Source: Candidatus Poribacteria bacterium
GTDB lineage: Bacteria > Poribacteria > WGA-4E > WGA-3G
Length of the DNA: 64,000 nucleotides
Reading direction: 5' to 3'
NCBI GenBank assembly: GCA_965205025.1
Contig: CBDBFU010000030.1
Location: forward strand, 9,338 to 73,337
Shown: positions 20,334 to 21,631 of the stretch, in pieces
Numbering within the stretch: position 1 is the stretch's first letter
How the letters are laid out: each line of letters begins with the position of its first letter
Translations under genes and position numbers: made by a program
Notes under the pieces: generated by a model
The model's input: only the letters and a program-made list of their open reading frames with translations
Databases searched by the model: none
Told to the model about the DNA's origin: nothing

Positions 20334-20939
20334 ATGGCAACATATTATAAGGGAGCAGGTGTCGGTTCACATTGGCATATACACGATTCTCGTAAAATTG
20401 GATTTACAGCCAGGTCCCCTGAAAGGAATCCAACAACTGATGCCTTAATTGAACATATTTCTACAAGTACTCTGAATAGTCCTTATATTTCAGTCACACG
20501 GTCTTATGCAGTTGCTTGGACCTATGCGATGATTGGTGAAACAGATAGACCTACTACAAATAATCCGGCATACATTTACGAAATCGAAATAGATAATTCT
20601 TTACCATCAAATATTAAACTAATAGATCCAATTAAAGAAGTTGCTCAAAGTTTCTTAGAACCCATTGAGGTTAATAAACCAGAAGAGTATTCGTTTTACC
20701 AACATAATGGATTACCAAGTTATTTACGGGGAGTTGTTGATCCACAAGAAATGGGGGAATACCTGTTAGGCAGGTCACCTGAACCACCAGGACCTGGAAC
20801 AGAGTATCCTCAACAACCAAAAACTCCATTAAAGACGTTGATTAATACCTTACGTGACGCTGAAATATTGATCCTTGGAAATATACCCAAATCGTGTGTG
20901 AAAAATAGGTTTGATGTGACATATTCTGGAGTTGATTAG
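20334..20939 (+). CDS. Putative R-S-E clade ADP-ribosyltransferase (enterotoxin-A/pierisin-like fold), cytoplasmic
   Basis: YYKG, GFTAR, LIEH, SPYISVT, YIYEI and DAEILILGNIP are colinear with cholera toxin A1 motifs LYRA, GLMPR, LYDH, GYVSTS, YIYVI and EQEVSALGGIP. Confidence 0.7.
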   Translation: MATYYKGAGVGSHWHIHDSRKIGFTARSPERNPTTDALIEHISTSTLNSPYISVTRSYAVAWTYAMIGETDRPTTNNPAYIYEIEIDNSLPSNIKLIDPIKEVAQSFLEPIEVNKPEEYSFYQHNGLPSYLRGVVDPQEMGEYLLGRSPEPPGPGTEYPQQPKTPLKTLINTLRDAEILILGNIPKSCVKNRFDVTYSGVD

Positions 20940-20962
20940 ATTATTAAAGTGGAGATACTTCA

Positions 20963-21631
20963 ATGGGTAAATACATAAAACATATCATTGATTTGGAAGG
21001 ATTACCAGACTACAAGTATATTCAATTTCTACGAGTAGAGATTCTTAATATTCAAGGATTTAATTCATCCTTCTTTGGAAGAGTGAGATATGCTCGTAAC
21101 GGTATTGAACAAGATGAAGGTTTACCGATGGACCTCAGTAAAGGAATTTTCATTGCTACACTGAGAGATGACCAACTCAATGGAATCCCGCGTGATGAAT
21201 TAGAAAAGACACTACAAGATGCCGCAGACGATATTACTAAAATCGTTCGATATAACTTACCTTTGGACAACCTCTATCACAACCACAATCACTGGGATGA
21301 GAACGAGAAACAGGTTGGTAAAGATATAGATAAAAAAACAATAGAGATTCTCAATAAGATACTTACAGAATATCCATATCTTACTTATGATGAGGATCAT
21401 TCTGAACCTCCAGATATATTACGGTGTCGTGTAAAAAATGACTCTACTGATTCTCCTCGTCATGCCAATGACATCTTCCAAATTGTAGAGAAGTTAAAAA
21501 CAGAAACAGGACAACCCTATAGTATTGGAACCTACGGTGGATCATTTAATGGAGATGACGATTTAGATAAAGTATGGACCAGGTTTTCTCTAAGAAAATT
21601 CAATTTTGAAGATAAAGCAAAAAACAATTAA
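20963..21631 (+). CDS. Hypothetical protein; candidate antitoxin/immunity partner of the ART
   Basis: 222-aa ORF with GGAG RBS, 23 nt after the ART stop; no recognisable motif. Confidence 0.6.
   Translation: MGKYIKHIIDLEGLPDYKYIQFLRVEILNIQGFNSSFFGRVRYARNGIEQDEGLPMDLSKGIFIATLRDDQLNGIPRDELEKTLQDAADDITKIVRYNLPLDNLYHNHNHWDENEKQVGKDIDKKTIEILNKILTEYPYLTYDEDHSEPPDILRCRVKNDSTDSPRHANDIFQIVEKLKTETGQPYSIGTYGGSFNGDDDLDKVWTRFSLRKFNFEDKAKNN

Follow-up and report, generated by a model that had tools for sequence, protein, structure and literature searches.

A candidate intracellular ADP-ribosyltransferase gene and its conserved companion in Poribacteria and other bacterial phyla

In a 64,000-nucleotide (nt) stretch of DNA from a Candidatus Poribacteria bacterium (contig CBDBFU010000030.1; this whole stretch is referred to as the window), we analysed two adjacent genes, the first encoding a 201-amino-acid (aa) protein with motifs of ADP-ribosyltransferase (ART) toxins, and the second a 222-aa partner. 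An earlier note, made from the sequence without database searches, had proposed that these two open reading frames (ORFs), 23 nt apart, constitute a new toxin-antitoxin or anti-phage pair, and both ORFs were confirmed, at 20334..20939 and 20963..21631. AGGA/GGAG-like sequences can be read a few bases 5' of the ATG in both. The two genes and the parts of the partner are listed below.

20334..20939, + strand: ART-like ORF, 201 aa; candidate toxin/effector, Pfam DUF7587
20963..21631, + strand: partner ORF, 222 aa, after a 23-nt spacer from the ART-like ORF
20963..21262, + strand: partner N-domain, aa 1-100; universal ART-associated domain with a DLxK motif
21263..21310, + strand: partner linker, aa ~101-116; low confidence, variable in length in homologues
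21311..21631, + strand: partner C-domain, aa 117-215 plus tail and stop codon; predicted alpha/beta ferredoxin-like, an exchangeable accessory

Conservation and distribution of the gene pair

The ART gene and the N-domain of its partner are found together far beyond the window. A gene with the N-domain follows the ART gene in all 21 Poribacteria loci examined in detail. When prokaryotes were scanned at one genome per species, 94 ART relatives were returned, of which the best 80 were taken and 28 of these loci examined, comprising 24 with a non-Poribacteria name and four without a phylum label. With a partner profile derived from Poribacteria, an N-domain ORF was found directly after the ART gene in 21/28 loci, and with a broader N-domain profile in 28/28, where the 11 loci outside the training set of the broader profile all matched (E 1e-32 to 9e-8). 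Conservation of the gene pair, a check that the earlier note had proposed, is therefore well supported both in Poribacteria and elsewhere. A conserved third gene was sought among the 28 loci, and none was found. The ART and its partner are separate genes in the window and in 49/49 loci examined, with overlaps of 1-4 nt in some loci. Adjacent, co-oriented genes are the layout expected of a type II toxin-antitoxin system, in which the two products also bind each other directly, a part that is predicted here from models of the complex, as described later.

Outside Poribacteria, relatives are present in Planctomycetota, Phycisphaerae, Rhodothermales, Bryobacterales, Acidobacteriota, Terriglobia, and Thermoanaerobaculia, as well as in Anaerolineales, Chthoniobacterales, Chthonomonadaceae, Defluviicoccus, Acetobacteraceae, and Methylobacterium ajmalii (Alphaproteobacteria), and this distribution is patchy. 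In the phylum sample of 121 genomes, the ART was identified in 54, all within one family (53/81 genomes, compared with 0/39 genomes of seven other families) and with up to five matches per genome, and the partner was identified in 63. In one Planctomycetota locus (L048:5073-8794), the pair lies between DUF58/VWA and BatA/VWA genes, with the end of the partner overlapping the BatA-like gene by 4 nt, an arrangement that looks like an insertion of the pair into a Bat-type operon.

The ART-like protein

All six motifs that had been quoted for the 201-aa protein are present in its translation and in the reported order: YYKG (residues 4-7), GFTAR (23-27), LIEH (38-41), SPYISVT (49-55), YIYEI (80-84), and DAEILILGNIP (175-185). 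The peculiarities described alongside them were likewise seen in the sequence, namely a Lys in place of Arg in motif 1, an Asp where Glu or Gln would normally precede the catalytic Glu (R174-D175-A-E177 in the window copy), a long insertion of ~60-70 residues before the last motif, within which YQH[DN]G is conserved, and no signal peptide, judging from the lack of a hydrophobic stretch at the N-terminus. In an alignment of 87 relatives (28-64% identity), G7, H41, S53, S57, A61, R174, and D175 are invariant, and H124, G126, and E177 nearly so; position 55 is Thr or Ser, and position 6 is Lys or Arg, with Lys6 in the window copy. The catalytic loop varies to RDAG in 2/87 relatives and to RDTV in one fused relative. 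Conservation at these positions across the 87 relatives, which include those that the earlier note had matched to the R, H, S-T-S, and E-x-E set of cholera-type ARTs, takes the motif likeness beyond what would be expected by chance.

The 201-aa protein narrowly passes the Pfam threshold for DUF7587 (PF24494; 27.7 bits against a cut-off of 27, residues 33-69 only), and it has a weak Scabin-like match below the Pfam cut-off (E 0.049, residues 22-85). Matches to DUF7587 at E <=1 were found in 40/40 close relatives and 76/87 diverse relatives. The other Pfam matches among the 87 were Scabin-like (8/87, best E 1.9e-4, all below the cut-off) and NarE (2/87). The family comprises 91 clusters in a word-indexed search, and 348 representatives at E <=1e-3 in a profile search over 1.84 billion proteins.

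The relationship to named ARTs is clearest at the level of profiles. We built a toxin comparison profile from five sequences, namely the A subunit of heat-labile enterotoxin (LT-A) and four proteins above the Pertussis_S1 cut-off from Pseudomonadota genomes. Aligned with hhalign to this profile, the 87-sequence family profile gave E 9.2e-6 and a probability of 82.9% over 63 columns (residues 17-88). In this block, H41 falls on the invariant His of the toxins, SPYIS-T on the S-T-S strand, and YIYEI on YVYxI, so that the S-T-S strand of the cholera/pertussis group and the His that precedes it both lie within the significant alignment. A permissive rerun placed Y5-K6 onto the Y-R of the toxins as a low-confidence extension. 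The nearest clusters in a protein language-model comparison were ARTs of the Pertussis_S1, Scabin-like, ArtA, NarE, Lart1, and Tse2 types (scores 0.91-0.97), and in one more cluster, annotations as DUF7587, Scabin-like, and Pertussis_S1 occur side by side. Clusters bearing DUF7587 are also found in molluscs. It is worth noting that two of the Pertussis_S1 comparators (L130:100-1890 and L131:1202-1678, Pseudomonadota) are C-terminal toxin domains of Rhs-repeat/PT-HINT-type polymorphic toxins.

A number of results pull the other way. The R-D-A-E loop aligned with the E-x-E loop of the toxins only in sub-significant alignments (E 0.08 and E 0.068, the latter collinear with the significant block), and LT-A alone was insignificant against the family profile (hmmsearch -2.1; hhalign E 0.08 over 21 columns, centred on AE-L..G.IP / QEVSALGGIP). 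The earlier note's match to the R-S-E core of cholera and pertussis toxins therefore holds against the five-sequence profile, over the block of the His, the S-T-S strand, and the following beta-strand, but not against LT-A by itself. The AlphaFold model of the ART, made from a shallow 40-sequence alignment, was poor (pLDDT 40.7), and fold searches with it returned only sub-significant matches, to EcPltA and pertussis S1, so that the ART-fold matches which the note had expected did not materialise at significance. Sequence and profile searches of the PDB with the 201-aa protein found no ART, and the family profile, searched against a collection of 5.8 billion proteins, gave only close family among the matches listed, with no bridge to named ARTs. 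The Lys of motif 1 and the Asp of the catalytic loop also depart from the canonical residues. Because the AlphaFold model is poor, we infer the fold only from profile and motif evidence, and on this basis the 201-aa protein is very probably an ART-fold enzyme of the pertussis/cholera/scabin lineage that belongs to a separate clade.

The partner, its predicted complex, and its fusions

The 222-aa partner had been described in the earlier note as an unassignable protein of two domains. It does have two domains and no family, but the description of it as one unit does not hold, as only its first ~100 residues are universal. No match to Pfam or NCBIfam was found for it at E up to 10, and none to PADLOC; sequence and profile searches of the PDB gave nothing credible, the N-domain had no usable match in a language-model atlas, and PHROGs and NCBIfam searches gave nothing credible. 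In line with this, the partner has none of the macrodomain, ADP-ribosylhydrolase (ARH), or SecB-like motifs that had already been reported missing, and a NADAR signature was likewise not found in the Pfam search. In the AlphaFold model (pLDDT 76), two domains (residues 1-100 and ~117-215) are separated by a disordered region of pLDDT <50 (residues 101-122), and the linker region is variable and gapped in the homologue alignment. The N-domain is predicted to be a beta-meander with a long helix, and the C-domain an alpha/beta ferredoxin-like structure, for which a fold search indicated a generic alpha/beta domain. D57 and K60, which form part of the DLxK motif, are invariant in 26 N-domains.

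Among the 21 Poribacteria partners, the C-domain is present once in 10, twice in one, and not at all in 10; other Poribacteria partners join the N-domain to an HSDR_N restriction-endonuclease-like domain (280-460 aa). The C-domain also occurs on its own, sometimes in tandem, in many Poribacteria genomes. The universal companion of the ART is thus the N-domain only, and the C-domain is an exchangeable accessory. DUF433 is a small domain of antitoxin-like proteins, and in two loci (L138:1350-1871 and L139:1406-1918, both on the minus strand) a third gene, belonging to a paralogous cassette, encodes the C-domain joined to DUF433 (E 1.5e-25). One relative of 186 aa (P0074) consists of ART residues 1-131 and the last ~50 residues of the C-domain, and looks like the product of a gene-fusing deletion.

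We predicted the complex of the ART (87-row alignment) with residues 1-105 of the partner (26-row alignment). Three runs gave ipSAE values of 0.74, 0.63, and 0.68 (median 0.68), compared with 0.00 for the best control, which supports the binding that the earlier note had proposed to check by complex prediction; the ipSAE mark is reached by 58/80 solved complexes and also by 2/110 mismatched pairs, a calibration that is only rough here because our own alignments were used. The partner has pLDDT >=79 in the complex models, and at least 73% of contacts are common to the runs. The confident interface comprises residues 12, 43-47, 63-72, 135-141, 167, 171, 174, and 197-200 of the ART, and residues 28-40, 52-66, and the helix of the partner. 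Among the contact pairs of lowest error are R174 of the ART with residue 59 of the partner, and residue 171 of the ART with the invariant K60. The N-domain is therefore predicted to bind the ART beside the R-D-x-E loop and the His-41 region. The placement of the invariant DLxK motif against R174, near the H41 segment, supports binding in these models and would be compatible with occlusion of the active site.

In several relatives, the N-domain or the ART is joined to domains typical of defence systems. The gene bSEFIR is an experimentally supported defence gene, and in two loci (L079 and L080) the ART gene is followed by one whose product has the N-domain ahead of SEFIR/TIR, a STAND NTPase, and TPR repeats (PADLOC bSEFIR, E 4e-28 and 2e-40). 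In a third locus (L118), the N-domain heads a PD-Lambda-4_A-like protein (PADLOC E 4.5e-28). These bSEFIR and PD-Lambda-4_A matches come from the parts of the proteins other than the N-domain. According to a recent preprint (bioRxiv 10.64898/2026.01.04.697583), PD-lambda-4 is Avs8, a STAND protein whose trigger is the major capsid protein of phages. The STAND NTPase architecture is confined to L079, L080, and L118, and the window partner, at 222 aa, has no NTPase. Fifteen ART relatives carry extensions, and of the ten that were scanned against Pfam, two have an N-terminal TIR domain (P0224 and P0305), one has a metallophosphatase (P0226), and seven have no recognised domain; no secretion or delivery domain was found among these ten. 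In P0255, the ART and the N-domain are fused in one chain. The presence of the N-domain at the N-terminus of STAND-type proteins encoded directly after an ART gene suggests that the ART serves there as a trans-encoded effector.

Genomic context and interpretation

Around the pair in the window lie the following features, of which we do not consider the flanking genes at 19401..20174 and 21646..22527 part of the module.

17110..18093, opposite strand: AstE/AspA-type deacylase, on the 5' side of the pair
19401..20174, + strand: upstream flank, signal-peptide protein with weak ConA-like similarity (GH43_C2, E 0.0036)
20192..20314, no strand: MITE-like dispersed repeat, 123 bp, directly 5' of the ART gene
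21646..22527, + strand: downstream flank, FGE-sulfatase family protein (E 5e-52), starting 14 nt past the partner stop codon
22560..24200: FG-GAP/ASPIC protein, 3' of the FGE-sulfatase gene

The upstream repeat, which the earlier note had identified as a miniature inverted-repeat transposable element (MITE), has 13-nt perfect terminal inverted repeats (20192-20204 and 20302-20314, with 97 nt between them). The interval 20180-20330 has 29 matches in its own genome, at 74-100% identity and mostly partial, which places it in a dispersed repeat family of MITE-like character. The 13-mer TTAACGTGAGTTC or a one-mismatch variant of it occurs in four copies in the window, compared with 0.09 expected. 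The repeat is a boundary feature of the locus and possibly a promoter donor. Further copies of the dispersed repeat are found at 18394-18461 and 61024-61084. A 161-aa ORF at 18496-18981, which contains a KNLKNLKNLKNLK repeat and adjoins a repeat copy, has no Pfam match and is probably not a gene. On the other side, 3' of the FG-GAP gene, two short ORFs of 73 and 92 aa at 24278-24780 contain Cys-rich zinc-finger-like motifs; the 92-aa ORF has no Pfam match, and the two may be a transposase or regulator remnant.

The order ConA-like or AstE gene, ART, partner, FGE-sulfatase, and FG-GAP gene is shared by 9/21 loci, and the upstream flank is 70-74% identical in those 6 of the 8 other loci at this site for which a copy could be matched. 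An FGE orthologue without the pair is present in four genomes (G031, G040, G063, and G074; 74-78% identity); in G031, the AstE and FGE genes lie 328 bp apart with no detectable cassette remnant, which is a clean empty site. At the shared site, the flanks are 70-82% identical to those of the window, compared with 45-65% for the ART and partner. Both a 185-aa ART type and a longer type are found at this site in both genera, and the short type forms a clade with 100/100 support that mixes genera. Inside the clades, the branching of the ART tree agrees for the most part with genus. Decay is frequent: partial copies make up 37/103 of the ART matches listed, many of them 3' remnants that directly precede an intact partner. 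In three further loci, the two-domain partner is intact and no ART lies within 4 kb, and in a fourth only a 66-residue ART remnant is left beside the partner. The empty sites, the orphan partners, the ART remnants, and the divergence above that of the flanks agree with the accessory cassette that had been suggested from the sequence. The empty sites, together with the unrelated contexts of paralogous pairs, also speak against a functional link with the FGE cluster, with which the pair is possibly co-transcribed.

The window also gave matches to defence-type models. Among 48 of its ORFs that were scanned, PADLOC reported a match to a Type IIG restriction-methyltransferase model (E 4.4e-256). 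A 1028-aa ORF at 49518-52604 (+ strand) has NPPY at residue 475 and an ILDPATGTG motif of SAM-binding type, and judging from these motifs it is probably the source of that match. Other PADLOC models matched among the 48 ORFs were mad3 (two members, E 2e-29), mad8 (two members), mad2, HNH, and subtilase, so that a MADS-like or restriction-modification-related cluster may lie elsewhere in the window.

Taking the conserved pairing, the predicted binding, and the fusions together, the pair is moderately likely to be a two-gene, toxin-antitoxin-like conflict module, with a cytoplasmic ART toxin and an N-domain that acts as inhibitor or docking element. The product of the first gene would be a cytoplasmic mono-ADP-ribosyltransferase of the R-S-E lineage, in the DUF7587 clade, and binding of the N-domain would keep it inactive or tethered. 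This hold would be lost upon decay of the partner, upon a signal acting on the accessory C-domain, or, in fused forms, upon activation of a STAND/Avs-type sensor, and the freed ART would then use NAD+ to modify an essential target, stopping growth and aborting infection. Since the N-domain is expected both to hold the enzyme and to head sensors, it would be an inhibitor as well as a docking handle, joined in Poribacteria to a small alpha/beta or a restriction-endonuclease-like domain, and in other phyla forming the N-terminus of bSEFIR/TIR-STAND-TPR or Avs8-like sensors, at the position usually occupied by the effector. More tentatively, the N-domain may be a dedicated effector-docking domain through which diverse immune sensors deploy a separately encoded ART in trans, with the catalytic loop covered until the sensor fires; the DUF7587 ARTs may accordingly be a phylum-spanning, intracellular clade of pertussis/scabin-like enzymes, possibly directed at nucleic acids, which Poribacteria expanded into several long-lived paralogous cassettes per genome.

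Several observations count against a conflict module. Neither protein matched any family in PADLOC-DB v2 at E up to 10. The immediate neighbours of the pair encode metabolic or secreted proteins and no defence genes, and the nearest defence-type match that can be placed in the window is the Type IIG candidate, ~28 kb away. No relatives were found in viral contigs (two peptide patterns), in phage records (tblastn), or in plasmids (with the Methylobacterium homologue as query). The partner has no DNA-binding domain detectable by Pfam/NCBIfam or fold search, unlike most type II antitoxins. In the tree, the paralogue groups appear old, with mostly vertical inheritance, and in two genera the cassette has stayed at the same syntenic site, 14 nt 5' of the FGE-sulfatase gene, which would fit a housekeeping operon. 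The earlier note's undescribed toxin/immunity or abortive-infection module is therefore supported by the conserved pair, the predicted binding, and the defence-type fusions, but not by PADLOC, which recognises neither protein, nor by the immediate neighbourhood in the window, which is not a defence island and whose genes keep their order in 9/21 loci.

The same module might work by other chemistry, in which the first gene product, as an NAD+ glycohydrolase or phosphorylase, would kill through depletion of NAD+, with the partner still acting as inhibitor or dock. In known defence systems, TIR and SEFIR domains act as effectors that consume NAD+, and TIR and RES-type toxins deplete NAD+; the ART is found fused to or beside TIR/SEFIR domains, and the departures from the canonical residues at K6 and D175 could make transfer to an acceptor less efficient. 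NADase activity is common among ART-fold toxins, as in the Ntox40/TNT family (PMC9503650). Profile and language-model comparisons, however, place the 201-aa protein nearest to transferases, namely Pertussis_S1, Scabin-like, and NarE, and the conserved YQH[DN]G insert would suit an acceptor-binding element, so that we consider NAD+ depletion unlikely. A housekeeping role, in which a regulatory ART would modify one of the cell's own proteins in a reversible manner, with the partner as its specificity or regulatory subunit, perhaps tied to the FGE-sulfatase/FG-GAP cluster, would account for the co-orientation with and proximity to the FGE-sulfatase gene (a 4-nt overlap in L023 and L040), for the synteny, for an ART tree that largely follows genus within clades, and for the missing defence genes next to the pair. 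We regard it as quite unlikely, as genomes without the pair have clean empty sites and still carry intact FGE and FG-GAP genes, paralogous pairs sit in unrelated contexts with no common third gene in the 28 other loci, the pair diverges more than its flanks, decays frequently, leaves orphan partners, and is fused to defence-type domains, and no reversing hydrolase is encoded.

If the 201-aa protein were instead catalytically dead, or a scaffold without the ART fold whose motif likeness is convergent or vestigial, then the poor model, the lack of a significant PDB match, the insignificant comparison with LT-A, the Lys for Arg and Asp for Glu/Gln, and the loop variants RDAG and RDTV would all fit. 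This appears very unlikely given that the positions at which catalytic residues would be expected are the very ones that are invariant in the 87 sequences, at 28-64% identity, that the profile-profile match is significant, and that the independent weak signals all point toward pertussis-type ARTs. Lastly, the ART could be exported toward the sponge host, with the partner a chaperone that keeps it inactive or export-competent. The confinement of the ART to one family of the phylum sample (53/81 vs 0/39) and the occurrence of DUF7587-bearing clusters in molluscs would fit, as would the reversal of pierisin-type modifications by a sponge NADAR enzyme, which is described in PMC12945103. Yet no signal peptide is present here, nor a delivery domain here or in the ten scanned fused relatives, and the patterns of decay and the fusions to defence domains suggest a role inside the cell. 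The same pair is also present in lineages, Acidobacteriota, Planctomycetota, and Methylobacterium among them, that would live in soil or groundwater judging from their names or isolate labels, and we consider a sponge-directed effector highly improbable.

Compared with known ARTs, the window ART, read as the toxin of a conflict module, shares with pertussis S1, EcPltA, and the A1 chains of cholera toxin and LT the motif order, and the register of the His, the S-T-S motif, and the following beta-strand; its putative catalytic Glu also lies in an x-E loop, which aligns with theirs at sub-significant scores. Unlike the pertussis and cholera toxins, it has no signal peptide, A2 or B subunits, or disulfide loop; its motif 1 has Lys or Arg, its loop is R-D-x-E rather than [EQ]-x-E, it contains the ~60-70-residue insert, and it appears to be a cytoplasmic protein with a dedicated, predicted binding partner. 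Scabin, ScARP, and pierisin, which form the best named Pfam match after DUF7587, are likewise small single-domain enzymes, but Scabin-type enzymes are secreted, unlike the window ART. Scabin/pierisin-type ARTs modify DNA or nucleotides, with guanine or cytidine as targets, as stated in PMC12945103. The ART does not have the layout of a polymorphic secreted toxin, in which the toxin domain ends a protein with Rhs, PAAR, LXG, haemagglutinin, or other delivery domains, as it stands alone and no delivery domain was found in the ten scanned extended relatives.

ART toxins with cognate neutralisers are already known, including DarTG, ParST, CmdTAC, and Tre1-Tri1. The pair resembles DarTG, ParST, and CmdTAC in that a putative cytoplasmic ART toxin is encoded beside its predicted neutraliser, with a patchy distribution and links to phage defence, while the ART is of a different clade and matches no PADLOC model. 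DarG neutralises through the hydrolase activity of a macrodomain, and CmdTAC depends on a chaperone of the SecB type; by contrast, the window partner has no macrodomain, ARH, NADAR, or SecB signature, and binding is all that is predicted for it. Nor does the pair belong to DarTG, as neither protein matched a PADLOC model, and in Pfam the ART matched only DUF7587 and Scabin-like, with no DarT family or macrodomain found. The Avs proteins known so far have their effector in cis. Among Avs/STAND proteins, including Avs8 and bSEFIR, the three homologous loci described above carry the N-domain at their N-terminus, while the window partner is without NTPase, TIR/SEFIR, or a repeat sensor. CapRel is a fused toxin-antitoxin defence protein, and the P0255 fusion is similar to it and fits an auto-inhibited effector, whereas the genes in the window are separate. 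A SecB-dependent ART toxin-antitoxin system is mentioned in PMC7159879.

In the library searched, we found no paper naming DUF7587, nor any pairing Poribacteria or bSEFIR with an ADP-ribosyltransferase, although the supplements of PMC7159879, PMC8195603, and bioRxiv 10.64898/2026.01.04.697583 may already list the domains. New here are the DUF7587 enzyme clade, the family-less N-domain, and the recurrence of the N-domain at the effector position of STAND, bSEFIR, and Avs8-like proteins. What makes the clade distinctive is a pertussis/scabin-like enzyme that would act inside the producing cell, with a neutraliser that is a new putative binding domain without an enzymatic signature. If this reading is true, it would give a function to Pfam DUF7587 and reveal a new fold for the inhibition or docking of ARTs, it would extend bacterial immunity of the nucleotide-binding leucine-rich repeat (NLR)-like type to split effectors that are recruited in trans, and it would offer a clue as to why sponge symbionts keep several such cassettes.

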